Origin: an uncultured Thermodesulfobacteriota bacterium
GTDB taxonomy: Bacteria > Desulfobacterota > GWC2-55-46 > JADFVP01
Length of the DNA: 64,000 nucleotides
Assembly (NCBI GenBank): GCA_964472295.1
Contig: CAYYJQ010000002.1
Location: 32,074-96,073, forward strand
Direction of reading: 5' to 3'
The translations under genes were made by a program, and so were the position numbers. Shown piece after piece: positions 8,063 through 29,129 of the stretch (position 1 is the first letter of the stretch; each line of letters opens with the position of its first letter). The notes under the pieces are model-generated. The model was given only the letters and a program-made list of their open reading frames with translations, was not told the origin of the DNA and did no database searches.

Positions 8063-8109
8063 AACGGTGAAAATATGCGCCGCCATCTTCAAGGTTTGTC
8101 AGCCCTTGA

Positions 8110-8414: not shown

Positions 8415-9578
8415 TCATCCTCTTGCGGCCATATCATACACCCTCAGTATATTCTCCATCATGGTATGGACCGAAAACCTATCTTCTACGAAGCGCCTTC
8501 CCTCTTCTGCAAGCCTCTTTCTAAGAGCAGGCTCGCTTAATAGTCTCAAGATGGCCTTGCCGAGTCCCTGCTCATCACCTGCCCTCACAAGCAGTCCCGT
8601 CTTCTCGTGTATTACGGTCTTACTGATTTCGTCTACGTCTGTTGCCACAACGGCCTTTTCATGGGCCATGGCCTCTACGAGCACGAGACCCTGACTCTCA
8701 GTGGAAGAACATAGCACCAAAATGTCCATGGCACTGTACACGGCGTCCATGTCGTTACGCCAGCCCGTGAAGACAACGCTATCGCCCATGCCGAGCTCGG
8801 CGGCGAGCCTCTTAAGGCCCCCCATCAGCGCTCCATCGCCTACTACGAGAAAACGCGCATCCGCCTTGGCCTTAAGCACCCCGGCGGCCGCCCGGAGGAA
8901 GTGGTCGTGGTTCTTCACCGGGACCATCCTTCCTACGATAGCCACAACAGGTGCCCCTGCGCTGATGTCAAACTCTCTCCTAATGTCTGAAGACTCATCC
9001 CCAGCACCGGCCTCGGGAAGGAGTATGCCGTGAGGTATGGTCTCGATCTTCTCCTCACCCACCCCCTGCTCGATGAGCCTTTTCCTTATGCCCCCAGAGA
9101 CGGCGATAAACTTCTTTGTAAACCCGGACATGAGCCTGTCGACCTGAAAAAACAACCTTGCGCCAAGGGGGCTCTTCTCAAGCCCGGCGAGTTCGTCTAT
9201 CATGTAACTGTGCATGGTGGTAACAACGGGAACACCTGCAAGCCTCGCCGAGAGCCTCCCGTAAAAATTGCTGTTTATGGTATGCGTGTGCATCACATCT
9301 ATCCGGTTTCTCTTAAGATAGATGTACAGCCTCGCCACAAGGGCAGGGTCCAGGGGCATGTATTTGGGTATCAGTTCATAGGGTACTCCAAGGTCCTCGG
9401 CCACACGCTGACCCGGACCGGGTATGAAAAAAACCACCCTGACGTCGGCCCTTTCACGGGCCTCCCTGGCAAGCGTCAGGACATGGGTAAGGGCCCCACC
9501 GCCCTGGGCGTCTATAAGGCAGGCTATCCTGAGTCTTCTCCCGCGCCCTCCTCTCCTGGTTCCCGCCCTTGTCCTCAA
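8415..9578 (-). CDS. GT4-family glycosyltransferase (GT-B fold)
   Basis: EX7E-type motif EAMAHEKAVVATDVDEISKTVIHEKTGLLV and a GT-B C-domain. The N-terminus from the ORF track (MRTRAGTRRGG...) is probably over-extended. Confidence 0.75.
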   Translation of the reverse strand: MRTRAGTRRGGRGRRLRIACLIDAQGGGALTHVLTLAREARERADVRVVFFIPGPGQRVAEDLGVPYELIPKYMPLDPALVARLYIYLKRNRIDVMHTHTINSNFYGRLSARLAGVPVVTTMHSYMIDELAGLEKSPLGARLFFQVDRLMSGFTKKFIAVSGGIRKRLIEQGVGEEKIETIPHGILLPEAGAGDESSDIRREFDISAGAPVVAIVGRMVPVKNHDHFLRAAAGVLKAKADARFLVVGDGALMGGLKRLAAELGMGDSVVFTGWRNDMDAVYSAMDILVLCSSTESQGLVLVEAMAHEKAVVATDVDEISKTVIHEKTGLLVRAGDEQGLGKAILRLLSEPALRKRLAEEGRRFVEDRFSVHTMMENILRVYDMAARG

Positions 9579-9654
9579 ACCCGTCCTCTATTGATATATG
9601 CAGACATGCACGCGCCGCGCTAAAAACCCCACCAACGCCCCCTTGGGCGCCCCC

Positions 9655-10836
9655 TTACATCCTCTCGGTCTTGACCCACTTCTTGCCGCTTCCGAGCAAA
9701 CTCTCGAAGACCATGGCCAGCCTCTGCACGAGAAAGAGCGGCGCGTAGACAAGATTCACGTAAACCCTGAAGCTCGCGTGCGCTATCATGAGGCCCGAGA
9801 GGGTATATATCGTTAGTCCTCCCGCCAGCGCCGTCCAGACGCAGAACCATGTGTCAATGCCATTGTAAAATAAGAGGAGGTACATGACGTAGAAGAAGTA
9901 AGTGGCCCCTGCGTAGAGGAGGTAGGGTGGAATTATGAGTTCAAGTACTGCGTCAAGGCAGGCGGGGCTCAGCTCTCTTAACCCCTTTGCAAGTAGCAGG
10001 GGGACGTACTTGTTACGGAGTTTGTACTTCCCTACGTCCCAGCGCGACCTCTGGGTATGGTACGACTTAATCCTTGAGGGCATCTCGGCCCATACCTTTG
10101 TCTCCGGCGCGAAGACTACGGGAACATCTTCAAGGAGGAGCTGGAGCTGATATTCGAGGTCTTCTGATATGGAGAAGGCACGCCAGCCGAAACGCTCTAT
10201 TATCTCTCTTGTAATGCACATGCCGTTCCCGAGGAGGTTTACGCTGAAGCCGAGGCGGCTCCGTCCCCTGTACTTCAGGTTTCTGCTTATGGCGAAACCA
10301 AGAAAGGTAAGGCTCGCCATGGGGGAACTTGCGGGTTTGAGCACATCGTAATATGCCTGCACGACCCTGGCCCCTCCGGCAAGGTACCCATTCATGACAT
10401 TCAGGATATTGGGGTCTACAATAGTATCGGCATCTACTATTATGAAGGCGTCGGAGCCGTGGGTCTTGAGTATTTTCTTGAAGGCCCACTCAAGGGCCTG
10501 CCCCTTTCCGGGGTTGGCCCTGTCATGTCTTTCGAGGCACTCAAGCCCCGCGCCCTTTACTATCTCCACTGTCCTGTCGTCGCAGTTATCGGCCACCACG
10601 AGAACCCTGTACAGGTCCTTCGGATAGGAGATATTACCAAGGCTCTGAAGGGTATCACCTATGACGCTTTCTTCATTATGGGCGGGTACTATTATTGTAT
10701 ATCTCTTCTTGGGTGCGTCCCCCCTCTGCCGGGCAGACCCAGGCCAGAACCCGGCTACGGCCAGGAATACGTAGTAGAGGAGGAAGAGAGAGAATATCGC
10801 CCCTATGCCAAGCACTATGAACTCGATGACGAACAC
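9655..10836 (-). CDS. GT2 processive polysaccharide synthase-like glycosyltransferase (D,D,D,QxxRW class; PgaC/NodC/cellulose-synthase-like)
   Basis: N-terminal TM helix, then TIIVPAHNEE...VLVVADNCDD, IIVDADT and SEDLE, then QRSRWDVG (QxxRW), then several C-terminal TM helices. Confidence 0.75.
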   Translation of the reverse strand: MFVIEFIVLGIGAIFSLFLLYYVFLAVAGFWPGSARQRGDAPKKRYTIIVPAHNEESVIGDTLQSLGNISYPKDLYRVLVVADNCDDRTVEIVKGAGLECLERHDRANPGKGQALEWAFKKILKTHGSDAFIIVDADTIVDPNILNVMNGYLAGGARVVQAYYDVLKPASSPMASLTFLGFAISRNLKYRGRSRLGFSVNLLGNGMCITREIIERFGWRAFSISEDLEYQLQLLLEDVPVVFAPETKVWAEMPSRIKSYHTQRSRWDVGKYKLRNKYVPLLLAKGLRELSPACLDAVLELIIPPYLLYAGATYFFYVMYLLLFYNGIDTWFCVWTALAGGLTIYTLSGLMIAHASFRVYVNLVYAPLFLVQRLAMVFESLLGSGKKWVKTERM

Positions 10837-10849
10837 CTACCGCTTCCTC

Positions 10850-12520
10850 CTACAGGTAACCGAGTCCCTTAAGCCTCTCCTCCACCTCTTTGCTGTCCTC
10901 ATCGGAGTACTCGGTAATCTCTCCCTGACCTGAAAATTCCGTGGCCTTGCCCCTGCTCACGGGCCTGCCCTCTGTGAAAGACCGCTCAAAGACCTCCTTC
11001 AGCACCCGCCCATCCATGTCCTCGGGAACGTCCTCACCGAGGGCGTAGAGTATGGTTGGGGCTATGTCCGTAATGCGCGCCCCCTCGACCCTCTCGTCCT
11101 TTTTTATGACAGGACCAAGGGCCATGAAGACCCCGTCGAGCCTGTGAGTTCCTATATGGAGGTAATCCGAGGCGTCTACCTTCTGGTACTCGCCGAAGCA
11201 GTCTCCGCTCTCGCGCCCCGGGGTATTGGATGTATAAAAAGAGTAGTCCTTCCAGCAGATGATAAGGTCCGGCGCTTCCTCGATCATCTCTCCCCTGTAG
11301 AGGTCCTCCTTCCTGTATACCTTCTCGACTATCTTCTCCCCGCTCTCGGGGTCGGTAAGGGCCTCTATCTCCTCGATGCAACGGGACCGCATGTCTTCGT
11401 ACTCCGCACCGGGCTCCACTATCCCGCCGGGCTCCCTGCCCTTGAGGTTTATGAAGATATTCCCGTACATGCCGAAACCATAGGCCTTTGTCCTGGACCA
11501 GTCTATGTCGTTAAAGAACCTGTAGGACTCGACGCGGTCCCGCACGCCGGGAAGAAAGGTCTTCATGAAGTTTTTGGCCTTTCGCGGCAAGAACCTCTTG
11601 GCCATGTAGCGCCCCATCTCAAGGGTCTTGAAGGCCGCGCCGCCGTTACTATCAAGATAGGCGAGATACCCGTTGAGCTCAAGCCATCTATTGAGATAGA
11701 AGAACCTCTTTATGGGGCCAGAGCCATGGTCTGAGATAATGAAAACGGCAGTGTTGCCATGGGCGTCAGCCCTTTCGAGGAGTTTTCCTATCTGCCTGTC
11801 AACATTCACATATGTCTTTACTATGAGGTTCTCGGGGTCCACCCTTCCAGCGGCAAGCTCGCGCTCCAGTTCCAGGGTGAAGTACTGGTGCTGGACCCTG
11901 TCCGTATTGGTATATGCCGTCATGAAGAGGTCTGTTGGGGTCTTGTCCCAGAGGTAGAGGCCTATATCAGTCCGATTCCTGTCCTCGGCCTGTATATCCC
12001 TCCAGAACTTGTCTTCTTCCACCCTCTTTCTCCCTATGGGAGAAGCGAGGTGTATGTAGTAGTTCCCGAAGCGTTCCCTTATCTCGGCGAGGAGTTCCGG
12101 CGGGTATACGGCCCGCTCATCCTCGGCGGGCGAATCCATGCCAGAGAGCATGAACCCATTGACAGGCTCTGGAGGGTAGGTAAAGGGCACGGCGATACAA
12201 CCCACCTTACTGCCCCTGCGGCTCAGGTGCATGAAGATGGATTCCGCGGACCTTCTGGAGGCGTTTACGAACTCTATGCCATAGGACCCCTCGCGGCGCC
12301 TGATAAAATCAAAAACGCCGTGCTTTCCGGCGTTCTTTCCCGTGAAAAAACTACTCCACGCCTGCGGGGTTATGGGGTGTATGGTGGAGCGTAGCGGCCC
12401 GTGCATGCCTTCGGAGAAGAACCTCGCGAAGTTGGGCAGGAGCCCCTTTTCCACAAGAGGGTTTATGACCTCAAAGGTGGCGCCGTCCACGCCGATTACC
12501 ATTACCTTTAGACTCTCCAT
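10850..12520 (-). CDS. cytoplasmic alkaline-phosphatase-superfamily protein, NPP/type-I phosphodiesterase family (paralog 1 of 4)
   Basis: MVIGVDGATFEVINPL...STIHPITPQAWSSFFTGKNAGKHGVFDF, with an NPP-type metal/nucleophile context. No signal peptide. An acidic linker is followed by the C-terminal tail ERLKGLGYL. Confidence 0.75.
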   Translation of the reverse strand: MESLKVMVIGVDGATFEVINPLVEKGLLPNFARFFSEGMHGPLRSTIHPITPQAWSSFFTGKNAGKHGVFDFIRRREGSYGIEFVNASRRSAESIFMHLSRRGSKVGCIAVPFTYPPEPVNGFMLSGMDSPAEDERAVYPPELLAEIRERFGNYYIHLASPIGRKRVEEDKFWRDIQAEDRNRTDIGLYLWDKTPTDLFMTAYTNTDRVQHQYFTLELERELAAGRVDPENLIVKTYVNVDRQIGKLLERADAHGNTAVFIISDHGSGPIKRFFYLNRWLELNGYLAYLDSNGGAAFKTLEMGRYMAKRFLPRKAKNFMKTFLPGVRDRVESYRFFNDIDWSRTKAYGFGMYGNIFINLKGREPGGIVEPGAEYEDMRSRCIEEIEALTDPESGEKIVEKVYRKEDLYRGEMIEEAPDLIICWKDYSFYTSNTPGRESGDCFGEYQKVDASDYLHIGTHRLDGVFMALGPVIKKDERVEGARITDIAPTILYALGEDVPEDMDGRVLKEVFERSFTEGRPVSRGKATEFSGQGEITEYSDEDSKEVEERLKGLGYL

Positions 12521-12531
12521 TAATACCCCTT

Positions 12532-14058
12532 CTATAGATACCCCAGGGCCTTGAGGCGTCCCTTTATCTTATCAACTTCCATGTCCCCTTCGTCGCTGGC
12601 CGCGGCGCTGGTAGGATTGAAGCTCTCTATGTACGATACAGGAAGGTCCTCGGTGAAGATACCCTTAAGGACCTTTCCCGGCATGTCCCTCGCCACCTCC
12701 ACGCCCATGAGGGCAAGAGATGTGGGGGTAATATCGTATATAGAGGCATCGGGCATTGACTTGCCCACCTTGATGCCGGGGCCTGCCGCCATGAATACGC
12801 CCTCGAGTTTGTGGTCCCCCGAGACGTCAGCCTTGTGCGGCGAGAAGAGCCGGGAGAAGGGCACTTCGCCGAACCTCTCCGCCCTAATCACCCGTTGCGG
12901 GTCCATGACAACGCCGGAGAACTGGTCCCCGAGTTTTATCCCGATGAGCGACTCCTCGTAGATAATATCAAAAACCTTCTCGCCAGTATCGGCAAAACGC
13001 ATCTCCTCGACAATCCCGGAGACTTCCTTAAGGAGATCCCTGTCATTAAAGTACATGAAGGTCATGAAACCTATGTTGGCGGGTATTACCTTTTTCTCAA
13101 TGCCAATGAGGCCGAGAAAGACCTCGTGATTCAACCTAAAGGACTCCTTGAGCATTTCCATGGCCTGGGCCCCGTGGTCGGAGATGAGCATTATGGTGGT
13201 ATCGCTCCCGGCGGCGTTCATGAACTCGCCTACTGTCCTGTCGGCCTCGATGTAAGACCGGGGAATTACATCCGCGTACCTTGAAACAAGGTCTCTATCC
13301 ACGTCCTTGAACCTCTCGGGCTCATAGTACTTCCAGTACCTGTGTGCAAGGGCGTCGCAGAGGTGTATGTGAAAGGTGGCGAAATCGGGCCTGTGAAGTC
13401 CATAGAGGTAGGTGAAGAACTCGGAGCATATCCTCAGGTGCAGGGCCGCCTTTTTCCAGTACTTCTCATCATCAGGGGGCCGCCGGACCATGTTATTGGC
13501 AAGAAAGACGAGGCTCTCAAGAAGGGTACGCGCGCTGACGCCGTGTTTCTTGAGTTTCAGCGCATAACCAACGAAGGTGCCCAGCCTTGAGGACCCCTTG
13601 CCCTTTGACTCAAGCTCGGGTTTGTTCTTCTTTCTCTCACCCAATGTGAGTTCCTGCAAAAAGCTGTATTCCTCGGGGTATGTCTCAGGGCCTATGGAAA
13701 AGAGGGACGGTATCATGAAACCATTTACCGGGTAGGGGGGCCAGGTGACAAAACTTCCAAAGACCCCTACCTTATGCCCCTTCTCGCTCAATATGTCCCA
13801 TATGCGCCGCACCTTCACCATGGACGATGAACTTCCGAAGAACTCCACGCCATGCTCATTGGAACTCTTCCCGGAAAAGATGGTAACCCATAGACGCGGC
13901 GAGATAAGGGGGTGCTCGGAGATGAGGTTGCCCGATACACCTCTTCTCATGAGCGCGGCTATATTGGGGAGCTTGCCAGAGGAAATGAGCGGGTTCATTA
14001 CATCCCAGGTGGCCCCATCGAGCTCAATAATCATAAGTTTTGATCGAAGTCCTCTCAT
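12532..14058 (-). CDS. alkaline-phosphatase-superfamily NPP-family protein (paralog 2)
   Basis: The ORF-track frame extends to 14301. The likely start is the Met at 14058 (MRGLRSKLMIIELDGATWDV), with GGTGGAG 5' of it overlapping the stop of the upstream gene. Motif ISPRLWVTIFSGKSSNEHGVEFF. C-terminal tail GRLKALGYL. Confidence 0.7.
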   Translation of the reverse strand: MRGLRSKLMIIELDGATWDVMNPLISSGKLPNIAALMRRGVSGNLISEHPLISPRLWVTIFSGKSSNEHGVEFFGSSSSMVKVRRIWDILSEKGHKVGVFGSFVTWPPYPVNGFMIPSLFSIGPETYPEEYSFLQELTLGERKKNKPELESKGKGSSRLGTFVGYALKLKKHGVSARTLLESLVFLANNMVRRPPDDEKYWKKAALHLRICSEFFTYLYGLHRPDFATFHIHLCDALAHRYWKYYEPERFKDVDRDLVSRYADVIPRSYIEADRTVGEFMNAAGSDTTIMLISDHGAQAMEMLKESFRLNHEVFLGLIGIEKKVIPANIGFMTFMYFNDRDLLKEVSGIVEEMRFADTGEKVFDIIYEESLIGIKLGDQFSGVVMDPQRVIRAERFGEVPFSRLFSPHKADVSGDHKLEGVFMAAGPGIKVGKSMPDASIYDITPTSLALMGVEVARDMPGKVLKGIFTEDLPVSYIESFNPTSAAASDEGDMEVDKIKGRLKALGYL

Positions 14059-14065
14059 CTCCACC

Positions 14066-15595
14066 TCACATGTACCCAAGGCTCTCAAGGCGCTTACGCA
14101 TCTTCGCGTAGTCCACGGGTTCTTCTTTACCGGAGGCCGCCTCTCCGCTCTCGTAACTCTCAACGTAACGTATGGGATGTTCCTTGAGGAAGTCTTTCGT
14201 AAATATGGCCTTGACGGGACTGCCGTCCATGTCCTTTGCAACGGGATAACCTGCAAGGGCAAGTACCGTTGGAGCAACGTCCATGATGGAGGCGTCCCCA
14301 AGGGAGGAGCCTCTCTTTACGCCTTTACCGTGGAAGAGAAAGATGCCGTTATCCTTGTGCACGCCAGTAACACGGAGCTTCCTTGTGGGGAAGAGATCAG
14401 CAAAACGGTAAGTCCCCAAATCAGCGACAGAGACCTCGGTATCGTCGTTGACATCGGTACGCCAGAGCTTCGTAGTGGTCTGTATGCTGAGATACCTCTC
14501 GTACTGGTCCACCTTGAAGATGCTCTCCTTTGTCCCGGCAAAGGCTATCTTCTCGATAACACCCTTGGCACGCGCCATCTCTTCTTTATCCCTCGAGGGA
14601 AAGGTCAGGTAGACCTTTATGCCGAAACGCGCCGGTATGACGCTGTTCTCAAGGCCGAGTATCTTGAGAAACCTCTCTATGTCGAGGATATGGGGCTGAA
14701 TCGCATCGGGCATGGCACCAAAGCCGTGGTCCGATACAAGCACCACGCTTGTATCATCGTCTATCATATCAAGAAAAGCGCCCACGGTCCTGTCGAGCTC
14801 CATATAGGCCTCGGGGATGACCCCGGCAAACTTGGCAGTAGCGGCGTCAGGGGCCTTGGAAAACTTCTCGGGCTCATAAGACTCCCAGTACCTGTGCGAT
14901 ATGGCGTCGCAGAGGTGGACATGGAAGGTTGCAAACTCAGGCCTATGCCTCTTGTAGAGGTTAATAAAGAGCTCGGTAAGCATCCGGTGGTAAATGGTGG
15001 CCTTTCGCCAGTACTTGTCCAAGGGAGTGTGGCTTCCGGCCTTCTCCCAGAGAAAATACTTTAACATGTAGAGAAATGTGCTATTGCTTATCCCATTCCT
15101 CTGCAGACCTTTGACGGCCTTCAATATGGCGAAGAGCTTACCGCTCCTTGAGGCCTTCTGGGTCAACTTCCTTCTTTCCCTCAGCACCACTTCCTGAAAG
15201 GAGCTGTACTCCTCGGGATAAGTCTCCGGCCCCATGGCGAATACGCTCGGTATAATAAAGCCATTTATGGGGTATGGAGGCCAGGTTACGAGGCTTCCCA
15301 CCACCCCCACCTTATTTCCCTGGTCATTAAAGATGTCCCAGAGCCGTTTCTGACGCACGGACTTGGCGGAGTCGCCGAAGAACTCCACTCCGTGTTTTTC
15401 GGAGCTCTTCCCCGTGAAGATGCTCGTCCATATCCTCGGTGAGATCATGGGCTGTTCGGAACGGAGCACCCCCCAGGAACCGCGGTCCATCAAGCCCTTG
15501 ATGTTGGGAAGGCGCCCCTTGTCAACAAGGGGCTTCATCACATCCCATGTACCGCCGTCAACTTCCACTATTAGTATCTTAGAGGCTGGCTTCAT
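14066..15595 (-). CDS. alkaline-phosphatase-superfamily NPP-family protein (paralog 3)
   Basis: ILIVEVDGGTWDV...MISPRIWTSIFTGKSSEKHGVEFF. C-terminal tail KRLESLGYM. Confidence 0.75.
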   Translation of the reverse strand: MKPASKILIVEVDGGTWDVMKPLVDKGRLPNIKGLMDRGSWGVLRSEQPMISPRIWTSIFTGKSSEKHGVEFFGDSAKSVRQKRLWDIFNDQGNKVGVVGSLVTWPPYPINGFIIPSVFAMGPETYPEEYSSFQEVVLRERRKLTQKASRSGKLFAILKAVKGLQRNGISNSTFLYMLKYFLWEKAGSHTPLDKYWRKATIYHRMLTELFINLYKRHRPEFATFHVHLCDAISHRYWESYEPEKFSKAPDAATAKFAGVIPEAYMELDRTVGAFLDMIDDDTSVVLVSDHGFGAMPDAIQPHILDIERFLKILGLENSVIPARFGIKVYLTFPSRDKEEMARAKGVIEKIAFAGTKESIFKVDQYERYLSIQTTTKLWRTDVNDDTEVSVADLGTYRFADLFPTRKLRVTGVHKDNGIFLFHGKGVKRGSSLGDASIMDVAPTVLALAGYPVAKDMDGSPVKAIFTKDFLKEHPIRYVESYESGEAASGKEEPVDYAKMRKRLESLGYM

Positions 15596-17072: not shown

Positions 17073-17110
17073 GGGACAGTCCTCTATCTTTCTCCCTCAC
17101 AGACCTTCCC

Positions 17111-19869: not shown

Positions 19870-19884
19870 CCTGACTCCAACCTC

Positions 19885-20667
19885 TTAGATCCTCGCGAAA
19901 AACCTGTACCAAAAGAGGTATAGGATAAATTTTGTATTACCGATAAGGTATCTTCTCCAGAGGCGCCTCGGCTCCACGGCAAGTCTGCAGAGCCACTCGA
20001 AGCCATTGTCAAGGAGCCACGCCGGCCCCCTTCTCGTCATCTCGCTGATAAAATCAAATAGGCCGCCAACGCCCCAAACAACCTCCACATTCAGGCTCAC
20101 GGCGTACCTGTCTATCCACTTCTCCTGCAGAGGGGCGCCGAAACCCACAAGGAGTATATCGGGCTTTACCCTGTTAATCTCCTTTATGAGTTCACTACAG
20201 TCATTGTGATCAAAGTACCCATGGTGCGTGCCCACGACCTTGAGGCCAGGGGCCTGTTCCTCAAGTCTCCTTGCCGCCTCCTCTGCCACGCCCTCACCGG
20301 CGCCAAGAAGATACACGCTTATGCCCTGCTCCGCATACTCCTTGCAGAAGTCCGCGATAAAGTCCGCCCCCGTCATCCTGCCGGGCAGGCGCACCCCCCA
20401 GAGCCTCGCCCCGAGTACCACACCCACACCGTCTGCGTACACGAGGTCCGCGCTGTTAAGAATCCTCCTGTAGCCCCTGTCCTTGAGGGAAAGGAGTGAG
20501 CAGTCGGCGTTAAGATACATAATCTTTCGGACCTTGCCGTCGCCGGCATACTTTAAAGTCTTCCTGAGAAGGCCCTCCCTGTCAAGAATATCGGTCTTTA
20601 CGCCGAAAACCTCAACCGTATCCCTGGGCTCGCTATCCGCCTCTGACCTGCCACTCACTTCACCCAC
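19885..20667 (-). CDS. WecB/TagA/CpsF-family glycosyltransferase (GT26)
   Basis: LNADCSLLSLKD...YADGVGVV...VYLLGAGEGVAEEAARRL...GYFDHNDCSELIKEINRVKPDILLVGFGAPLQEKW, a characteristic GT26 signature. Confidence 0.8.
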   Translation of the reverse strand: MGEVSGRSEADSEPRDTVEVFGVKTDILDREGLLRKTLKYAGDGKVRKIMYLNADCSLLSLKDRGYRRILNSADLVYADGVGVVLGARLWGVRLPGRMTGADFIADFCKEYAEQGISVYLLGAGEGVAEEAARRLEEQAPGLKVVGTHHGYFDHNDCSELIKEINRVKPDILLVGFGAPLQEKWIDRYAVSLNVEVVWGVGGLFDFISEMTRRGPAWLLDNGFEWLCRLAVEPRRLWRRYLIGNTKFILYLFWYRFFARI

Positions 20668-22211: not shown

Positions 22212-22243
22212 CTCAATGCCCTCTGAAGTTCCTTAACGTCTTT

Positions 22244-23284
22244 TTACTTCTTGTAAAAGCCCAGCTCGGCTGCCCGCTTGTACACCTGTTTACGCTCCTT
22301 CAATATCCTCTCGTAATGCAGGGCATTGGAGGAATCGCACATCCTGCAAGTGGGAAGCCCCGAGAGGTCACGGTCGAGGTGCTTCCTTCTCAGCTCGTTA
22401 AAGGCTTCACTGTGCCAGAGGTCCTCTATACTCGAGTCGTTGAAGTTACCTACAGAGAGGGCGCCGTCTATATCTGCACAACATACGGTGGCGGTCCCGT
22501 CCCAGAATATGAGGAGGCGGTCGAAGAGCTGGTGGCAAGGCCTTACCTTCTCCCTTTCTCCGCGTTCCACGTGCGTAAGGTCCTCGACGTTTCCGTACCT
22601 CCCAACTGGCAGGACGTTTATCTTATCCGCATGAGCGGCCCATAGCTCAAAGACACCGTAGATCTCTTCCTCTGTGTCCTTGCTGAGTATGGTATTAATA
22701 ACCACTCGGGGTTTGTCCCTGCCCATATCGTTACGCATCTTTATCAAGGTCATTATATTATCCCTGACCTGCTCATATTTAGCGTTTACACGGATATTCT
22801 CGTAGGTTTCCCTGCTAGAGCCATCGAAGCTGAAAGTTATGGAGTCAAGCCCTGAATTGATTAGCCCTCTGGCCTTCTCCTCTGTCAAGAGCGTCCCGTT
22901 GCTTGTGAAGTAGACCCATGGCACACCCCTGTCCTTGGCATAGCGGATCATCTCCATGAGCCTGGGGTGCAACATGGACTCACCAAAGCGGTTGAGCTTA
23001 AGAACTGGAACCTTTATCTCCACCGCGTTGTCCACGATCCTCTTGAAGAGCTCCATGCTCATGAATCCGCTCTTACGCGTCATGCCGTCACGATCGCACA
23101 TAACACAGTTGAGGTTACAGACATCGGTAAGCTCGACGTAGACCGTAGGAGGAACTTTGGGAAGGATATGGAATTTTTTCTTTAAGGCCTTGCACGCGGA
23201 GTACAGAGGTTTTGCAAACCTTAGTGCTTTGACTTTTTTTAATTTTTGTATATCGGCAACCATCTCATTAGGCCTCTGATGCAA
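22244..23284 (-). CDS. radical SAM enzyme with C-terminal SPASM/twitch-type auxiliary-cluster domain
   Basis: CNLNCVMC (CX3CX2C) cluster motif. C-terminal Cys-rich region CCADIDG...GLPTCRMC. Confidence 0.8.
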   Translation of the reverse strand: MHQRPNEMVADIQKLKKVKALRFAKPLYSACKALKKKFHILPKVPPTVYVELTDVCNLNCVMCDRDGMTRKSGFMSMELFKRIVDNAVEIKVPVLKLNRFGESMLHPRLMEMIRYAKDRGVPWVYFTSNGTLLTEEKARGLINSGLDSITFSFDGSSRETYENIRVNAKYEQVRDNIMTLIKMRNDMGRDKPRVVINTILSKDTEEEIYGVFELWAAHADKINVLPVGRYGNVEDLTHVERGEREKVRPCHQLFDRLLIFWDGTATVCCADIDGALSVGNFNDSSIEDLWHSEAFNELRRKHLDRDLSGLPTCRMCDSSNALHYERILKERKQVYKRAAELGFYKK

Positions 23285-23313
23285 ACCTGAAAAGGGCGTA
23301 CATCTGTAAGAAG

Positions 23314-25350
23314 TCAGTCCAGAAAACTCTGGAGTATCTCAGGTACATACTCAGCCCGCTTGGTCAAGACGATGCCACTTACTGTACCGCCAGCTTCCCT
23401 TACCTTCTCTACGGCCCCCAAAAGCGAACGTCTGGAGGTCTGATCAGCCTCTACCGTGAGAATGACGCCATCGGCGGCGCGAGCGAGGAGAAGGGCATCT
23501 CTGAACCCCGTGGTGCACGGCGTATCGATAAGGACATATTCGTAATTCTCTCTGGCGTACTTGAGAAGCTCAGTCATCTTATCAGATGCGAGCACCTCGA
23601 AAGGGTCTTTTTTGTTCCTGAGAGGGTCCCCGGCGAATATCACCGCCAGACTGCAGGCACTGACAACAAGACCATCTGCCCCGAGGTCACTGCTGTAGTA
23701 ATCCATGAGCCCCCTTGAGGGCTTGACATCTAAAATCCCTTCGAGCGAGGGGGCCCTCATGTCAGCCTCAACGACAAGAACCTTCTTGCCGCGTTTGGCA
23801 AGGGCCCTTGCGAGAAAGACAGCAGTCGTGCTCTTGCCCTCACCGCGTCCGGGGCTCGAAATGAGATAGATACTGCTCGGCCTCTCCATGTTCTTTAACC
23901 GTATGCTGTCGGCAAGACGCTCGTAAGCGGAGAGTGACCTTGCGAGCACCTTCTCAGTAAGCATCCCCAAAAGCTTGTTGCCACCGGCGTGAGAGCCAGA
24001 GCCTATCATAGAAGCGAACACCTTTTTCCTGTTATAAAAGGGTATCATCGGGATAGCTCCAAGCGCAGGTATCGGCACCTCTGACTCAATATCTTTTAAG
24101 GACGTGAAGGACGTGCTCCAGTACTCAATCAAGAGGACGAAGGCAATGGCGGAGAACAGACTCGCCATAAGGGCCAGCGGTATAGTGATTGCCATCTTTG
24201 GCCAGTCAGGCTTTACATAGGAGTATACCTTCGCGCTGTCCAGGACCTTAATCTCAACATCCCCGACATCCGAGTTCATCAGGGCCTCAATCTCAAGAAT
24301 CTTCCCCTTGAGGGTAGTATAAAGATCCTGATGAACCTTCATGTCCTGGCTGAGCCTATCATACTCCACCTCCTCAAGAGGCAATGCCTTCAAGCGCTCC
24401 TTTATCTTCGGAATAATGGTATTCTTATACTCCTCTATCTTAGCGCCAAGGGCCCTTACCTCTGGATGGTTAACTGACTTTTCTATCCTTAATGACGCCA
24501 GCTGACCTTCCATGTCCTTTAGCTCATTCCCGTACTTATCCAGTCTGTTGAGTAATATCGTGGCCTCCTGATCATAGGAGAGTATGCCTGATTTGATCTT
24601 GTACTTACGGAACCTCTCCTGGGAGTCTTTGAGATTCTTGTCAGCCACGGCCAGCTGAACCTTTGTCGCCTCGAGCATGGAACGTAGCGGCAGTTTGCTG
24701 AGTTCCTTGTTCTTCTCCATAGCCAGCTCTACAAGCTTATTGCTGAGCGCCGTCGCTATCTCGGGAGACTCGCCCCATACCCCGACGTCTATGACTGTGG
24801 TATCCTCTTCAAGTTCTATATCCTCGAGGTCATCGAGCATCTCATCAACTGCCGAGGCAAGGTAGTTATCAGGCTTGTCCTTAAGTACGCCGATGTACTG
24901 CAAAAAGGCAAGGGGTTTGCCGATAAGAAAATCGTAGATATACCCGCGGATTATCTCCTTGACACTCTGCGGATCATTTGTCCTCTGCTCCCAGAGTTTG
25001 TCCCTCTTGAATGACTTGACAAGCTTCTCTGCAAGTTCGCGGCTTGTGAGCATCTGTATTATGTCGTTTGCCGGGTTGACGCCCGAGACCTGTCCGGCTG
25101 GCGTGGTAATGCCCTCGAACATTGAGAGTTGTTGCTTACTGCTGTACTGCACCCGTATCTTCGCCGTGGCCTTCCATGATGTGGTGACAAGGTAGGTCCC
25201 GAAGAGTATCCCCAGGAAGGTAACCCCGCAGACGAGAACGGCAAAATACTTCCTCTTGAACAGTGCATAGAGAAAGCCGTAAAGTATATCTCCCTGCGTC
25301 GATTCACTCTGCACTCTGTTTCCACTTGATGACTGGTTGGCCGGGCTCAT
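23314..25350 (-). CDS. polysaccharide co-polymerase / BY-kinase-like protein (Wzc/EpsG-like)
   Basis: N-terminal Wzz-like region with a TM helix and a second TM helix near residue 430. P-loop SSPGRGEGKSTTAVFLARALAKRGKKVLVVEADMR and Walker-B-like LIDTP. No C-terminal Tyr cluster. Confidence 0.75.
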   Translation of the reverse strand: MSPANQSSSGNRVQSESTQGDILYGFLYALFKRKYFAVLVCGVTFLGILFGTYLVTTSWKATAKIRVQYSSKQQLSMFEGITTPAGQVSGVNPANDIIQMLTSRELAEKLVKSFKRDKLWEQRTNDPQSVKEIIRGYIYDFLIGKPLAFLQYIGVLKDKPDNYLASAVDEMLDDLEDIELEEDTTVIDVGVWGESPEIATALSNKLVELAMEKNKELSKLPLRSMLEATKVQLAVADKNLKDSQERFRKYKIKSGILSYDQEATILLNRLDKYGNELKDMEGQLASLRIEKSVNHPEVRALGAKIEEYKNTIIPKIKERLKALPLEEVEYDRLSQDMKVHQDLYTTLKGKILEIEALMNSDVGDVEIKVLDSAKVYSYVKPDWPKMAITIPLALMASLFSAIAFVLLIEYWSTSFTSLKDIESEVPIPALGAIPMIPFYNRKKVFASMIGSGSHAGGNKLLGMLTEKVLARSLSAYERLADSIRLKNMERPSSIYLISSPGRGEGKSTTAVFLARALAKRGKKVLVVEADMRAPSLEGILDVKPSRGLMDYYSSDLGADGLVVSACSLAVIFAGDPLRNKKDPFEVLASDKMTELLKYARENYEYVLIDTPCTTGFRDALLLARAADGVILTVEADQTSRRSLLGAVEKVREAGGTVSGIVLTKRAEYVPEILQSFLD

Positions 25351-25409
25351 AATATATGCCTCATTTAACTACTCTCCTACAAGGTTTTGGATGTGCTATC
25401 TTGTAATGG

Positions 25410-25529
25410 TCAGAACTTTACGATCTTTAAGACCAGAAAAGAGAAGAAGGCCACCAGTCCTGTCCACGACGCAAAGAAAGCCGCTATTATAAAGAACCTC
25501 AGGTATCGCTGAAACTTGTTATCGTCCAT
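25410..25529 (-). CDS. candidate small single-TM protein (39 aa)
   Basis: Below the ORF-track length cutoff. Minus-strand ATG at 25529..25527 gives MDDNKFQRYLRFFIIAAFFASWTGLVAFFSFLVLKIVKF and ends at a stop at 25412..25410. AGGAAAAGG lies 5' of the start. It sits between the Wza-like and Wzc-like genes. Confidence 0.25.
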   Translation of the reverse strand: MDDNKFQRYLRFFIIAAFFASWTGLVAFFSFLVLKIVKF

Positions 25530-25589
25530 AGCCTTTTCCTATCACCCGCCCTGACGGGCGCCTTTATCTTATTTACAGCTCTACGTTAA

Positions 25590-26903
25590 TTAACGAAACC
25601 CTAATGACGTTGAAGAGCCCCTTCCCACGCCGGTCTCTATGTGCTGCCCAACCCAGTATCCGGTCTCGAGGTTGAAGAGGGGTTTGAGGATTTTGTCCAG
25701 ATGGTCGAAGAAGCGGTCCACGTTTGAGATAAAGGTTCTCGGGACATATATAATATCGCCCTTTCCAACAACGGGGTTCTGGGAGATATCGCCCTTCGCG
25801 TAGAGCCTCTTGAGATCCAGAACCTGCACGTCCGCAGACTTAGTGGCGCGCCCGCCCTTTATAAGTACGATGCTCCGTTGCTTTGCATCCAAGGTCAGCC
25901 CGCCGGCCATGGCGATGGCGTCAACTACACCAGCCTGCCCGTCAGCAAGGAATACCCCCGGGTGTTGAACCTCGCCGAAGACAAATACCTTGTGCCCGCC
26001 CAGACCGCTCACCTCTACGCCTACCTGCGGGTCGGCGATCCTCTTCGGGGCGCTAATCCTCATAATGTCGAGCGAGACCTGCGGGTCAACTACGATCTTG
26101 GGCATGCCCATTGAAACAAGGTCCACCCCCACCTGCGGGTCCTCTATGAACCCTGAGAGTCCCTCGGTTATCTCCTTCCTTAAATCGCCAAGGCTCTTGC
26201 CTTCGGCGCGTATTTCGCCGACCAGAGGGATGAAGATAACCCCGTCAGGAGGAATGAACATCTTACGGCTGAGTTCTTCCTGATGGTAGACAGTAATTGA
26301 TATTTCGTCCCCTGGCGCAAGGTATGATTTGCGGTACTTGGAAAGCCCGTCTACGATGACCTGCCTTATCTCACGCAAGGACCTACCGTCAGTGTTTATA
26401 TCGCCGACAAGGGGAAAGAATATATGCCCGTCCGAGGGCACGACAATCTCCCTGCTGAATTCATCATGACCGAAGATGGCCACGGAGATCTTGTCCCCAG
26501 GTGACAAGAACTGTTCCTTGCGCTCCGAGAGCCCTTTGGTTATAACACCCCTTAAATCCTTCAGGCTCATTCCTTTCGTATCAATCTCGCCCACTATGGG
26601 GTAAAAAAACTTTCCGTCAGCGGGGATCCTGATTTTACGTGTAAGGTCTTCATGCCCGTAGACAACGATTGAGATTTCGTCTCCGGGAGAAAGCATAAAC
26701 TTGCTGACCCCAAGTTTCTCTGTAAGAGCCCCTCCTGTAGGGGCACCCTCTGCACCGCCTTCCTGGACAGTACCCGGCGGCACGGGAGCGCTATCGCCAT
26801 GCCCCCTGAGTCCCGCGCACCCCTCTATCGCAGAAAGTAACGCGAGCATGAGCAGGAGGGCAAAGATTTTTCCAGTTTTATTCGCCAATTTTTCCTTCAT
26901 CAA
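25590..26903 (-). CDS. outer-membrane polysaccharide export lipoprotein (Wza/OPX family) with three tandem Poly_export-type repeats
   Basis: Signal peptide with Cys, ALLLMLALLSAIEGC. Three consecutive roughly 55-aa repeats LSPGDEISIVVYGHEDLTRKIRIPADGKFFYPIVGEIDTKGMSLKDLRGVITKGL, LSPGDKISVAIFGHDEFSREIVVPSDGHIFFPLVGDINTDGRSLREIRQVIVDGL and LAPGDEISITVYHQEELSRKMFIPPDGVIFIPLVGEIRAEGKSLGDLRKEITEGL. Confidence 0.75.
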   Translation of the reverse strand: MMKEKLANKTGKIFALLLMLALLSAIEGCAGLRGHGDSAPVPPGTVQEGGAEGAPTGGALTEKLGVSKFMLSPGDEISIVVYGHEDLTRKIRIPADGKFFYPIVGEIDTKGMSLKDLRGVITKGLSERKEQFLSPGDKISVAIFGHDEFSREIVVPSDGHIFFPLVGDINTDGRSLREIRQVIVDGLSKYRKSYLAPGDEISITVYHQEELSRKMFIPPDGVIFIPLVGEIRAEGKSLGDLRKEITEGLSGFIEDPQVGVDLVSMGMPKIVVDPQVSLDIMRISAPKRIADPQVGVEVSGLGGHKVFVFGEVQHPGVFLADGQAGVVDAIAMAGGLTLDAKQRSIVLIKGGRATKSADVQVLDLKRLYAKGDISQNPVVGKGDIIYVPRTFISNVDRFFDHLDKILKPLFNLETGYWVGQHIETGVGRGSSTSLGFR

Positions 26904-27374
26904 TAAGCACCAGTTTTTTAGAGACCTCTCGGATGAAACTTAAAATATCCTTTATTCTTTATCCCAGCCCATTTATATTAATTTCTCACACACCTCACAT
27001 CGTTACACCCTGGCAACCCGGCCATGAAAGACTATCTCCCCACATACATACCAGCCCCACTTATGCCCTCTCGTTCCAGGCGCTCAGGCACCCAGCCACA
27101 AAAACCGTCCCTACCTCCCCCGCCCCCCTGCCCTCTTTAACCACAAAGGTGCAAAGCAGGGTCTTGCCGATATTACCAGCACCCCTCATGTACCAGGACC
27201 TCACCCCGTCCCGCCCAATCCCAAGCGGTACTGGGCCGACCAGGATCATATCACAGATGAAGACGTTGAATAAGCGCGTAAAGCGCTACGATAAGCCCAA
27301 ATCACCTGTCACCAGACTTCAGAGCCCCCGTGAGAAGGAAGCTCTTTAGAACACCATTTGCTGTACCCCTATTC

Positions 27375-29129
27375 TTACCTGGCTCCTATCTTCTTTAGAA
27401 GCACATTAAAGGTCCTCAAGATTATCTTCAAGTCCCCTATAAGCGACTGTTCCTTCACATAGGCGACATCATACCTTATCCAGTCATGGAAGTATGGACT
27501 GCCCCTTCCCTCCACCTGCCAGAGCCCTGTAATCCCGGGCTTCACCCTGAGCCTTATATCCCTCCAGCTCGGGCTGAACTTCATCTCGTCCATAACAAGG
27601 GGCCTTGGCCCCACAAGGCTCATCTCGCCCTTGATAACGTTAATGAGCTGCGGAATCTCATCAAGACTCGTCTTTCTGAGGAAAGCGCCCACCCGTGTAA
27701 TCCTCGGGTCCCTGTCCATCTTGAATACAGGGCCGTCCACGTTCTTGCTCTCCATGTATTTTTTCTGCAGTTTGTGTGCGTCCTTTATCATTGTCCTGAA
27801 CTTCAACATGCCAAACTCGCGCCCGTCCTTGCCGCAACGCCTCTGGCGGTATATGACAGAGCCCGGAGAATCGAACTTGATGACAAGGGCTATGACCAGC
27901 ATGAGTGGGGAGAGCGCCATGAGCGCAACGGCGGAGAGAACGACATCCATGGCCCTCTTTGTAATGAGATAGGCCTGCGACTTCACCGCCTCCATCTTTG
28001 CCATGGAAACGCTGCTTATGCCCTCGGCACTGTCCCTTGAAGGGGCAAGGTTCATGTCCCCATGTTTTATATCACCCACAAGTGCCTTGTTGTTATAGGA
28101 ACGGCCTTCTTTTATATCCGAATTGGAGGCGGCCACGCAGTAAAAGAGGCTCGCCCGGCTCATTACCTTCGTGTCCTGCCAGAGTATGCTCTCCCGGACA
28201 ATGGCGCCCTCGTCCACCACGCACCCGCGGCCGAGTATGACCGGCCCAACGATCTGAGCGTGGTCCTTTACAACGCAGTTGTCGCCGATGACGGCAGGCC
28301 CGATCAGATAAGACCTCGGTGATATTGCCACGTTCTTTCCAACCCAGACATTGGCGCCAACTTCCTTGAGCCCGCTTGGCACATGGCCCTTGAGGATGCG
28401 GGACCTGTGAAGGTTGTAATAATCATCAATACTCTCAATGGTCCTTATAAAGCCCTCGAGCCTGTGAACATATACAGGCATTGAGGCCTTTTTCATGGCA
28501 GGGAACAACTGCTCCTTTATATCAAAATACCCTTCGCTGTCCACAAGAGAGAGCACCTTGGAATTCACCATGAAAATGCCCTCGGACTTTACGAGGGACC
28601 GCCTGTTCCTTGAGGCATGGATAATGGAGATGTCATCGACAAGGCCGTCATCGCGGGCCTTGATGGTCTCGAGTGTGGCGTCCCGCCTGCACGAAGCCCC
28701 GATGGTAAGGGCCGCCCCCTTGTTCATGTGAAATCTTATCAACTCGTCAACAGCGCTGTACTCGGCATAAGTGTTGCATTGCATAACAAGGACATCGTCG
28801 TCCTCGAAAAAGTCCCTGAGGTCGCGAAGGACCCCTGCCGTGCCCCGCGGCCGATCTTCCTCGTAGTACTCTATCTTTACGGGTGGCCTCCTGCCTCCAA
28901 AGTGCTCCGACGGGTCTACAGGCCGGGCGCCCTTGCGTCCAACTACCACTACGCTGGAGATGCCGTTGTCAGAGAGACACTGGATGGTCTGTTCCAGTAT
29001 GGGCCTGTTAAAGACCGGCAGGGAACATATTGGGGCGTGCTTGATGAGGGGCCTGAGGAGAGCGTTCTCTCCATCGGCAAGGATAACCGCCCTCTTTACC
29101 CTGGCTTTGATATGCGCGTGGTTAATCAT
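27375..29129 (-). CDS. fusion of nucleotidyltransferase-like domain, left-handed beta-helix domain, and polyprenyl-phosphate sugar-phosphate transferase (initiating PGT, WbaP/PglC-type)
   Basis: N-terminus RAVILADGENALLRPL has the NTP_transferase fold with the glycine-rich motif degenerate. Hexapeptide repeats VGKNVAISPRSYLIGPAVIGDNCVV. TM helix, then the bacterial sugar-transferase core SVIYRQRRCGKDGREFGMLKFRTM...DEIPQLINVIKGEMSLVGPRP...PGITGLWQV. Confidence 0.75.
   Translation of the reverse strand: MINHAHIKARVKRAVILADGENALLRPLIKHAPICSLPVFNRPILEQTIQCLSDNGISSVVVVGRKGARPVDPSEHFGGRRPPVKIEYYEEDRPRGTAGVLRDLRDFFEDDDVLVMQCNTYAEYSAVDELIRFHMNKGAALTIGASCRRDATLETIKARDDGLVDDISIIHASRNRRSLVKSEGIFMVNSKVLSLVDSEGYFDIKEQLFPAMKKASMPVYVHRLEGFIRTIESIDDYYNLHRSRILKGHVPSGLKEVGANVWVGKNVAISPRSYLIGPAVIGDNCVVKDHAQIVGPVILGRGCVVDEGAIVRESILWQDTKVMSRASLFYCVAASNSDIKEGRSYNNKALVGDIKHGDMNLAPSRDSAEGISSVSMAKMEAVKSQAYLITKRAMDVVLSAVALMALSPLMLVIALVIKFDSPGSVIYRQRRCGKDGREFGMLKFRTMIKDAHKLQKKYMESKNVDGPVFKMDRDPRITRVGAFLRKTSLDEIPQLINVIKGEMSLVGPRPLVMDEMKFSPSWRDIRLRVKPGITGLWQVEGRGSPYFHDWIRYDVAYVKEQSLIGDLKIILRTFNVLLKKIGAR

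Follow-up and report, generated by a model that had tools for sequence, protein, structure and literature searches.

Does a gene cluster in which Wzx/Wzy-type, synthase-type and export components stand next to enzymes of unexpected families encode a hybrid of assembly modes or one polysaccharide pathway, and what would the unexpected enzymes do in it? This question is raised by a stretch of 64,000 nucleotides from an uncultured Thermodesulfobacteriota bacterium (contig CAYYJQ010000002.1), here called the window, whose minus strand between positions 8415 and 29129 is filled by a run of 14 long co-directional open reading frames (ORFs). The ORFs were identified with Pfam and NCBIfam profile searches, and coordinates are those of the 64-kb window. 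An earlier note on this DNA, made from the letters alone, had described a single co-directional gene string, and this description stands: the 14 ORFs lie in a row, and the profiles recovered all the components listed there, i.e. an initiating phosphoglycosyl transferase (PGT), Wza-like and Wzc-like proteins, a MOP flippase, a Wzy-type protein, a glycosyltransferase (GT) of family GT26, a GT2 with a QxxRW motif, a radical SAM enzyme and four paralogues of the nucleotide pyrophosphatase/phosphodiesterase (NPP) fold. The inventory was incomplete, since it omitted a terminal GT4 gene (8415-9578; Glycos_transf_1, 1.3e-37, and Glyco_transf_4) that lies inside the same coordinates. We think that the string is, by its predicted products, one Wzx/Wzy/Wza/Wzc pathway and not a synthase hybrid. 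Its novelty lies in the pairing of a pathway of export of the standard type with tailoring enzymes from a widespread, uncharacterised family. We put at roughly 45% the probability that it is a pathway for a sulfated exopolysaccharide, using non-canonical sulfuryl transferases of the alkaline phosphatase (AlkP) fold.

The main parts by which a Wzx/Wzy system is recognized are encoded, namely an initiating PGT, a MOP flippase together with Wzy, a polysaccharide co-polymerase (PCP) of type 2a with a BY-kinase domain, and an outer-membrane polysaccharide export (OPX) protein, Wza. The flippase, in the Wzx role, is of the MurJ family (20655-22211; MurJ, 3.9e-68; TIGR01695, 242.9 bits against a cut-off of 235.55) and is conserved at the locus in L005, L007, L010-L015 and L173 (numbers with L denote the loci compared). 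Both the flippase and the Wzy-type polymerase (15579-17072; Wzy_C, 1.9e-21) have at least nine hydrophobic segments, and by family assignment the two roles would be present in the same unit. The initiating PGT is there as the earlier note had proposed, but it is actually a three-part fusion of NTP_transferase, LbH and Bac_transf domains (27375-29129; Bac_transf, 2e-66; NTP_transferase, 2.3e-11; TIGR03025, 279.7 bits), which recurs in L005, L011, L015, L017, L031, L032, L043 and L173. The PGT part, with a single hydrophobic helix at residues 393-422, is of the small monotopic type and would prime undecaprenyl phosphate. The nucleotidyltransferase-like domain occupies the N-terminal 360 residues, and its signature loop, canonically GGxGTRLxPL, is degenerate (LADGENALLRPL) here and in most of the orthologous fusions. 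This domain looks like a non-catalytic sensor, as in GMPPA or eIF2B, rather than a pyrophosphorylase, and it would probably sense a nucleotide sugar instead of acting as an enzyme.

The Wza-type protein (25590-26903; Poly_export, 6.5e-50) contains an N-terminal hydrophobic segment with a Cys, three tandem Poly_export repeats and an SLBB domain; it exceeds its orthologues (329-340 aa) by about 100 aa. The Wzc-type co-polymerase (23314-25350; Wzz, GNVR and AAA_31) is fused to a BY-kinase-like ATPase, gives TIGR01005/TIGR01007-type matches and has the Walker A, A' and B motifs. A C-terminal Tyr cluster was not found in it, as the last 20 residues hold one Tyr (...KRAEYVPEILQSFLD), and the window showed no phosphatase of the Wzb type; for the ATPase, a pseudokinase type or some other kind of regulation is conceivable. 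Between wza and wzc lies the gene of a single-helix membrane micropeptide of 39 aa (25410-25529; MDDNKFQRYLRFFIIAAFFASWTGLVAFFSFLVLKIVKF), without NCBIfam match. Its homologues occupy the same position in L005 (37 aa, 3880-3993) and L007 (34 aa, 1581-1685), and the hydrophobic family, with lengths of 34-39 aa, shares the core ...W(T/A)G...FFSF...LK...F*; beyond these two loci, a strict pattern found no member in distant loci. Perhaps the micropeptide serves as a small subunit in the Wzc/Wza machinery. In the proposed mechanism, flipping, polymerisation and export of the polymer would fall to the MurJ-type flippase, Wzy, Wza and Wzc, the last together with the micropeptide.

The earlier note saw in this set a mixture of assembly modes, which is not borne out, Wza and Wzc being normal in the Wzx/Wzy pathways of diderm bacteria. 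The case for a hybrid comes down to the GT2 (9655-10836; Glyco_tranf_2_3, 3.8e-27), which had been taken for a processive synthase and which might make a homopolymer alongside the Wzx/Wzy heteropolymer pathway, or feed it. This membrane protein of 393 aa has an N-terminal transmembrane (TM) segment and a hydrophobic C-terminal region, carries all the D, DxD and QxxRW motifs of synthase-type GT2 enzymes (DAD, ED and QRSRW) and matches PgaC_IcaA weakly (7.9e-18; 64.6 bits against a cut-off of 422). Among NCBIfam models it nevertheless matches EpsU best (5.4e-71, profile positions 30-390 of 394; 239.7 bits against a cut-off of 700), and EpsU is one of five GTs, EpsA being another, in the genetically proven Wzx/Wzy pathway for the exopolysaccharide (EPS) of Myxococcus xanthus (PMC7484181). 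The names given to relatives of the GT2 in JGI annotation are mixed, either poly-N-acetylglucosamine (PNAG)/cellulose synthase-like or non-processive diacylglycerol glucosyltransferase, so that a QxxRW motif alone is no proof of processivity. The partners of a synthase are missing as well: PilZ, a co-polymerase, a periplasmic scaffold or modifier and a synthase-type porin gave no Pfam or NCBIfam match in the 14 proteins or the flanks, and neither a deacetylase nor a TPR partner occurs in the string. Moreover, the Wzx/Wzy core is fixed among relatives, but the GT2 gene changes its place and its strand; homologues lie within or close to the locus in L005 and L173 and on the contigs of L007 and L008. 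We regard a synthase working in or beside this pathway as very unlikely.

In the single Wzx/Wzy pathway that we prefer, the GT26 of the WecG/TagA family (19885-20667; Glyco_tran_WecG, 1.2e-60; also found in L005, L014, L032 and L173), the EpsU-like GT2 and the GT4 encoded by the last gene of the string would assemble the repeat unit at the cytoplasmic face. The likeness to the Myxococcus EPS system (EpsZ, EpsU, EpsA, Wzx, Wzy, EpsV, EpsY; PMC7484181) extends to a PHPT-type PGT, an EpsU-type GT2 and PCP/OPX proteins, and EpsA matches the WecG-family GT26 of the window. EpsA is the second-best NCBIfam match of the GT26 (1.5e-40) and the EpsZ model the fourth of the PGT, both behind generic family models, and all scores lie far below the equivalog cut-offs, so that we are dealing with distant relatives and not with orthologues. 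In addition, the published description of that pathway is without NPP paralogues, tandem GNAT, radical SAM enzyme or PGT fusion (PMC7484181). The claim that unusual enzyme families, seldom described for such loci, occur together is well founded: Wzx, Wzy, Wza and Wzc are accompanied by four NPP-fold proteins, a tandem GNAT protein and a radical SAM/SPASM enzyme. This combination is not accidental, because relatives keep the block.

Conservation was read from the neighbourhoods of NPP_a homologues, with identical metagenomic contig copies left uncounted. Gene sets and orders of the string are conserved in L005, L007, L008, L010-L015, L032 and L173, and the relatives at 45-48% identity include metagenome-assembled genomes (MAGs) of Desulfobacterales and Thermodesulfobacteriota. 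The closest of those described here, L005 (64% identity), has nearly the same order: PGT fusion, Wza, Wzc, MurJ, GT26, NPP, tandem GNAT, Wzy, NPP, NPP, GT2, GT4. At 51% identity, L007 retains Wza, Wzc, radical SAM, MurJ, NPP, GNAT, Wzy, NPP, NPP, GT4 and NPP; at 45%, L008 (a Desulfobacterales MAG) retains the core of kinase, PCP, NPP, flippase, NPP and Wzy, with GNAT nearby; and at 42%, L173 has PGT fusion, Wza, kinase, PCP, NPP, MurJ, Wzy, NPP, NPP and radical SAM, with GT2 and GT26 divergent alongside. A splitting of the block into unrelated units, by which the earlier note would have been refuted, is seen in none of L005, L007, L008 and L173; as the block is kept together at 64, 51, 45 and 42% identity, the objection to a unit fails. 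We consider it very probable that the string is one conserved Wzx/Wzy operon.

The layout of signals also speaks for one unit. The sole promoter-like site found for the string is a sigma-70-like candidate (29325-29353, minus strand; TTGACA-17-TATTTT, 10 of 12 matches) about 200 nt upstream of the start of the PGT fusion, and the only non-coding minus-strand terminator-like sites within 7900-25400 are hairpins at 8199-8216, about 200 nt past the stop of the GT4 gene; both are consensus matches only. The gene spacing had been given as 0-30 nt except for one spacer. The 471-nt spacer (26904-27374) is exact, but further gaps exist: a second large one of at least 239 nt (25351-25589), another of 76 nt (9579-9654), and others of 38, 32 and 29 nt. 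The 239-nt gap is not empty, because it harbours the conserved micropeptide gene. The 471-nt spacer between the PGT and Wza genes, in which JGI calls a 62-aa ORF, is not conserved and is lineage-specific; in relatives the distance between these genes goes from overlap up to about 300 nt and is mostly below 160 nt. Since the consensus scan gave no minus-strand promoter- or terminator-like site in either of the two large gaps and Rfam gave no match, a regulatory RNA or an internal promoter or terminator was rejected for both. An apparent overlap of 236 nt between the ORFs of NPP_b and NPP_c vanishes when the ATG at 14058, preceded by a Shine-Dalgarno-like GAGGTGGAG, is taken as the start of NPP_c; the longest ORF would span 12532-14301, and the NPP_c product in the JGI annotation has 508 aa. 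For NPP_a, the longest ORF runs over 18196-19869.

Co-directional and immediately upstream of the string, outside 8415-29129, a LuxR/GerE-type regulator is encoded (29463-30083, minus strand; GerE helix-turn-helix (HTH), 3.9e-18), which matches CsgD and the EPS regulator EpsA through its HTH only and well below cut-off. The order of LuxR gene and PGT fusion on the same strand is an orthologous layout in L011 and L017, and the regulator gene would lead the single conserved operon.

The four NPP-fold paralogues are the components that set this operon apart. They all match PF01663 (Phosphodiest) and belong to two types. NPP_a (18196-19863) and NPP_d (10850-12520; 2.3e-39) are of a long type with a Thr nucleophile and a basic insertion, while NPP_b (14066-15595; 5.1e-25) and NPP_c (12532-14058; 6.1e-21), the second paralogue of the b/c type, have a Ser nucleophile, and NPP_b is without the basic insertion. 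The AlkP-superfamily core, the two-metal site of NPP type and the Thr nucleophile of the NPP/ENPP family are all found: alignments of 20 and 71 sequences show no variation at the metal ligands (D15, D209/H213, D267/H268 and H457), the nucleophile column, that of Thr54, is T or S across the 71 sequences and aligns with the catalytic Thr of PhnA, and Asn113 is conserved in the family. No TM segment is predicted in NPP_a-d, and in 20 aligned family members the N-termini run directly into the catalytic core, with no apparent signal peptide. As there is neither a TM segment nor an N-terminal extension, we take the proteins as soluble and cytoplasmic, so that the extracytoplasmic location typical of NPP/ENPP does not apply to the paralogues of the window, which are predicted to be catalytically active cytoplasmic enzymes.

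Compared with characterised members of the NPP/ENPP branch (Xac NPP, ENPP4/6/7, PhnA), the window proteins share the two-metal ligand set and a Thr nucleophile at the homologous position. Those members are secreted or ecto-hydrolases (PhnA being a soluble hydrolase), whereas the window proteins are predicted to be cytoplasmic, are about 200 residues larger and have family-specific insertions; in the long a/d type, an insertion of about 59 residues with a median net charge of +10 is present in 69 of 71 sequences. They also differ by a C-terminal tail, by 2-6 paralogues per locus and by their operon settings of glycan assembly and sulfate activation. The tail, an acidic stretch followed by LxxLGY(L/M), ends all four proteins (LGYL in NPP_a) and is invariant in the aligned family. 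Identities are 36% between NPP_a and NPP_d, 45% between NPP_b and NPP_c and about 26% between the two types, and positional orthologues in relatives are 51-64% identical, those of NPP_b occurring in L005, L007, L027 and L032. These are old paralogues with positional orthologues, and hence non-redundant.

The COG3379-like family to which they belong is large, with 5,045 representatives of 50%-identity clusters at E<=1e-30, and it occurs in anammox bacteria, Desulfobacterota, Nitrospirota, Chloroflexota, Verrucomicrobiota, Omnitrophota and Bathyarchaeia. Our literature search on COG3379/AlkP/NPP enzymes in polysaccharide loci returned nothing relevant and no characterised family member. By genomic context, the family is linked to glycans: 51 of 77 genomic loci from many phyla hold 2-6 NPP copies, GT4 and GT2 are each present in 41 of the 77, and the immediate neighbours of NPP genes are mostly GT2, Wzx-type flippases and GT4 (114 neighbour proteins scanned). 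Natural fusions exist as well, i.e. an NPP-NPP tandem (P0364, 1,104 aa) and a DUF2304-NPP protein (P0381, 709 aa), DUF2304 being a family of small membrane proteins; from these fusions one may suspect that paralogues cooperate and work at the membrane. The anammox-lineage locus L172 (Brocadia, GCA_021646415.1, 8489-21671) has the order flippase, NPP, (B12 radical SAM), NPP, PIG-L, tandem GNAT, GT4. In L058 and L072, the arrays are PCP/kinase, methyltransferase, NPP, NPP, MurJ, NPP, NPP, with GT2 and GT4 not detected.

A link to activated sulfate was first met among the NPP-rich loci without GT2/GT4 match. In L075 (candidate division TA06), ATP sulfurylase and adenosine 5'-phosphosulfate (APS) kinase genes lie within an array of six NPP genes, between PGT and flippase, and in L043 (Nitrospiraceae) and L071 (Omnitrophota) cysD and cysN are located between or adjoining NPP genes. 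The NPP family is thus embedded with sulfate-activation genes in three phyla. The reverse approach was a scan of an independent metagenome set with the CysD clade of L043 and L071, which returned 80 loci (L091-L170), 45 of them of at least 5 kb. Among the latter, cysN is present in 42 and an NPP-family gene in 35; counting also shorter contigs, the next gene after cysN is an NPP gene of the same strand in 31 loci. These cysN-adjacent proteins were first candidates for the long type, which was rejected: they form a distinct short subfamily (about 430 aa) with a Ser nucleophile, catalytic columns conserved in 26 of 26 and no tail. Long tail-bearing NPPs are found further along in several of the loci, and an APS kinase was detected in none of the 80.

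The tail itself points in the same direction. A regular expression for it, run on about 7,600 ORFs of the loci and the window (some duplicate loci skipped), hit 148 of 175 NPP ORFs and only six others: the APS kinase of L075, two CysD proteins (L043, L071), two sulfatase-fold proteins and a fusion of GT4 and sulfatase fold encoded on the plus strand of the window (39648-43298; 1,216 aa; Glycos_transf_1, and Sulfatase 7.6e-37). In the APS kinase of L075, two copies of the NPP-type tail form a 35-residue add-on, and E. coli CysC is tail-less. E. coli CysD natively ends in ...ELKKRQGYF, and hence the NPP tail resembles the CysD C-terminus. The notion that PAPS_reduct proteins had acquired the tail was discarded, since these are CysD proteins with their native C-terminus; only in the APS kinase is the tail an addition. 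In the CysD-clade loci, the tail was also seen on an ABC-transporter ATPase of L148 (CysA-like by eye) and on two kinds of small proteins next to cysD, one of about 75 aa that looks by eye like a ribbon-helix-helix regulator and is encoded upstream of cysD, the other a two-helix membrane protein (again by eye) of about 100 aa, encoded between cysD and cysN, which we take to be DUF2061-like; examples of the tail proteins of the CysD-clade loci are at 10770-11117 in L130 and at 3920-4147 and 7857-9098 in L148. It looks as if the tail marks a network of proteins centred on sulfate. With respect to CysDN(C), the CysD tail (...L-x-x-x-x-G-Y-F/M) is close to that of the NPPs and the short ones share operons with cysD and cysN, but the NPPs share this tail only and not the fold; in the CysD-clade operons the NPP gene takes the place that cysC has in E. 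coli. CysN is reported to contact CysD much as EF-Tu contacts aminoacyl-tRNA (PMC5770160).

Gene content, the conserved block, the fold with its catalytic residues and the genomic tie to sulfate activation are thereby shown; from them we infer sulfuryl-transfer chemistry, together with its acceptor and a role for the tail. The four paralogues would be tailoring transferases whose Thr/Ser nucleophile and two metals serve to pass an anionic group of an activated donor on to the lipid-linked repeat unit. Most likely this group would be sulfate, with APS or 3'-phosphoadenosine 5'-phosphosulfate (PAPS) as the donor and a sulfo-enzyme as the covalent intermediate. A sulfated exopolysaccharide would result, the NPPs would be sulfotransferases of a non-canonical fold, and their acidic-LxxLGY tail would probably serve for docking on a hub shared by all of them, perhaps CysN or a TPR domain. 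Canonical sulfotransferases (PF00685, PF03567, PF13469) were found neither among 34 scanned proteins of the window nor in the precomputed annotation of L001, L005, L007, L008, L172 and L173. Given the genomic ties to both glycan assembly and activated sulfate, and with no canonical sulfotransferase seen, sulfuryl transfer is the simplest account. NPP-type enzymes show measurable sulfatase activity as a promiscuous function, and ENPP1 hydrolyses PAPS.

The mechanistic model for this proposal comes from LtaS, EptA, BcsG and OpgB, AlkP-fold enzymes which pass an anionic group through a covalent Thr/Ser intermediate to a glycan or lipid, not to water. They differ from what we propose in that they have N-terminal multi-TM domains, are extracytoplasmic, belong to PF00884 and transfer phospho-groups. 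The main rival explanation accepts the single Wzx/Wzy pathway but has the NPPs transfer phospho-groups at the cytoplasmic face, giving a phosphodiester-rich product similar to teichoic acid. The proposed donors would be the phospho-alcohol head group of an inner-leaflet phospholipid or CDP-alcohol, or the sugar-1-phosphate of a nucleoside diphosphate (NDP) sugar or an undecaprenyl-diphosphate-linked (Und-PP) glycan, with a covalent phospho-Thr/Ser intermediate by analogy with the four enzymes just named. Diester chemistry agrees with the Thr nucleophile and with the conservation of Asn113, the basic insertion offers a possible site for an anionic lipid, and the loci rich in NPP genes without GT2/GT4 match (five in L058, four in L072, six in L075) suggest that NPPs could build the chain. 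Yet genes for the synthesis of CDP-glycerol, CDP-ribitol or CDP-choline are seen neither in the window nor in most loci, and where donor genes do occur, in L071, they come with a dedicated transferase that is not an NPP. In that locus, genes for an epimerase/dehydratase, a CDP-alcohol phosphatidyltransferase and an IspD-like cytidylyltransferase lie upstream of cysD (989-3430), so that phospho-alcohol decoration there seems to have machinery of its own, apart from the NPP genes. Furthermore, phospho-transfer leaves unexplained both the embedding with ATP sulfurylase, APS kinase and CysDN and the shared CysD-like tail. We consider this explanation unlikely.

The slot after cysN bears on a second rival, in which the NPPs are hydrolases that clear or regulate APS, PAPS, PAP, NDP-sugars, pyrophosphate or stalled lipid-linked intermediates, with the short form pulling the sulfurylase reaction. 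All characterised enzymes of the NPP branch are hydrolases, and in E. coli that slot belongs to CysC, which consumes APS. Hydrolysis of APS beside the enzyme that makes it would be futile, though, and 2-6 old, positionally conserved paralogues per locus are the pattern of substrate-specific tailoring and not of housekeeping. The tight pairing of NPPs with tandem GNAT and GT4 inside strings of flippase and polymerase, and the physical fusion of a GT of the window to a tail-bearing AlkP-fold domain, also speak against hydrolysis, which we judge rather improbable.

Several points weigh against sulfuryl transfer as well. No sulfate-activation gene was found in the 64 kb of the window, and only 3 of the 77 genome loci have such genes within 10 kb. 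For the window, one has to assume a sulfate reducer that needs no dedicated APS supply. The tightest link, cysD-cysN-NPP, concerns the short tail-less subfamily and not the long types of the window; the enzyme after cysN could instead pull the sulfurylase reaction hydrolytically; and the 80 CysD loci stem from one clade and are not fully independent. The closest structural relatives act on phosphodiesters and phosphonates, and we know of no sulfotransferase of the AlkP/NPP fold. In the sulfate-linked loci, the screen for canonical sulfotransferases covered only part of the ORFs.

A precedent for sulfation within a pathway of this kind is synechan of Synechocystis sp. PCC 6803 (xss), a Wzx/Wzy-dependent sulfated exopolysaccharide (PMC8205485). 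The two systems have in common Wzx, Wzy, PCP, several GTs, a dedicated regulator and decoration of the repeat unit at the cytoplasmic face before flipping; several tailoring enzymes are likewise present in both, and in synechan their number matches that of the anionic substituents. Synechan is made with canonical PAPS sulfotransferases of the three families found absent above, whereas in the window four NPP/AlkP-fold paralogues take the proposed sulfotransferase place and sulfation is deduced from context. The window locus, in addition, has genes for a Wza of its own and for a Wzc of the BY-kinase type.

Two further enzymes may tailor the repeat unit. The protein encoded directly after NPP_a (17111-18184) is a tandem-GNAT acyltransferase with a confident predicted model (pLDDT 95). 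The earlier description of it as FemAB-like holds at the level of the tandem-GNAT fold only; acyl-CoA enzymes are nearer, neither the FemAB Pfam domain nor a FemX-like structure with tRNA-binding coiled coil was found, and the decoration with amino acids derived from that description is not supported. In about 15 loci from several phyla, the tandem GNAT gene comes directly after an NPP gene, and in the Brocadia locus a PIG-L de-N-acetylase gene precedes it, which suggests that the enzyme N-acylates an amino sugar. The PIG-L deacetylase beside GNAT recalls the heparan-type logic of N-modification by deacetylation and re-substitution.

The radical SAM/SPASM enzyme (22244-23284; Radical_SAM and SPASM) is a variable accessory that probably modifies a sugar. 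Its closest solved relatives by sequence are BlsE, GDGT-MAS and BtrN, of which BlsE and BtrN act on sugars or small molecules, and it is present in L007, L010 and L173, absent from L005 and L008 and found in 10 of the 77 NPP loci. A different role was examined, that of an anSME-like maturase converting the Ser/Thr of the AlkP paralogues to a modified nucleophile. SPASM enzymes include anSME, sulfatases share the AlkP fold, and the best NCBIfam matches of the enzyme are 'metalloenzyme maturase' families. Nonetheless, anSME is not among the solved structures matched, the target motif C/S-x-P-x-R occurs in no AlkP-fold protein of the window, and the co-occurrence is patchy, the enzyme being absent even from the close relative L005. 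This role is highly improbable and was rejected.

Turning to the flanks, a separate, divergent glycan locus of the ABC-transporter type extends over 30386-47214 on the plus strand, with Wzm, Wzt with Wzt_C, GT4, GT2 and YfhO; two methyltransferases and a 1,009-aa membrane protein with PMT_2 and TPR are also encoded there. The divergent layout of the LuxR gene against the first two plus-strand genes (methyltransferase and PMT_2-TPR) is kept in L011 and L017, and L173 too has the PMT_2-TPR gene, which lies at 31129-34158 in the window. The GT4-sulfatase-fold fusion of this locus has T-I-P-S-H where sulfatases carry C/S-x-P-x-R, hence no formylglycine motif, and ends in ...EADEETKKKLEALGYL (...KKLEALGYL), the same tail as in the NPP paralogues. 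The shared tail links the plus-strand locus to the minus-strand string, and both would be in the same functional network if sulfuryl transfer holds. Downstream of the string, three large genes lie on the minus strand (1109-3115, 3295-5703 and 5727-8015). The first encodes an AlkP-superfamily protein with BNR repeats and an N-terminal hydrophobic, signal-like segment (with orthologues beside the locus in L010 and L012), the second a BNR/sortilin-repeat protein ('F510_1955 family glycosylhydrolase', 181 bits against an NCBIfam cut-off of 175) and the third an FG-GAP/ASPIC protein. A possible role of these proteins is to process the polymer or to bind it.

For sulfated polysaccharides of bacteria, good explanations are scarce outside cyanobacteria. 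Sulfated polymers similar to glycosaminoglycans have been measured in the matrices of anammox and granular sludge, where producers and enzymes are an acknowledged gap, and no prokaryotic sulfotransferase that acts on glycosaminoglycans has been identified (PMC7356697). Loci of the window type provide a concrete candidate: a large soluble family of the AlkP/NPP fold is encoded in Wzx/Wzy operons of many uncultured phyla, including Brocadia, whose genomes carry such NPP-rich loci, and the same family is found repeatedly in one operon with ATP sulfurylase. A wider proposal, that the COG3379-like NPPs are an unrecognised class of cytoplasmic AlkP-fold sulfotransferases, that they carry the sulfuryl group of APS or PAPS over an active-site Ser/Thr to lipid-linked glycans, that their CysD-mimicking tail recruits them to the sulfate-activating machinery and that such loci underlie the sulfated polymers of anaerobic and anammox biofilms, seems to us possible but doubtful. 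If sulfate is indeed transferred, we would have a new catalytic solution for sulfation and a marker for predicting sulfated EPS from genomes; if phosphate is transferred instead, these would be the first cytoplasmic counterparts of head-group transferases of the LtaS/EptA type. Either way, there would be a context for many thousands of annotations as 'alkaline phosphatase family protein', and the remaining machinery could be sought by way of the shared C-terminal tail.

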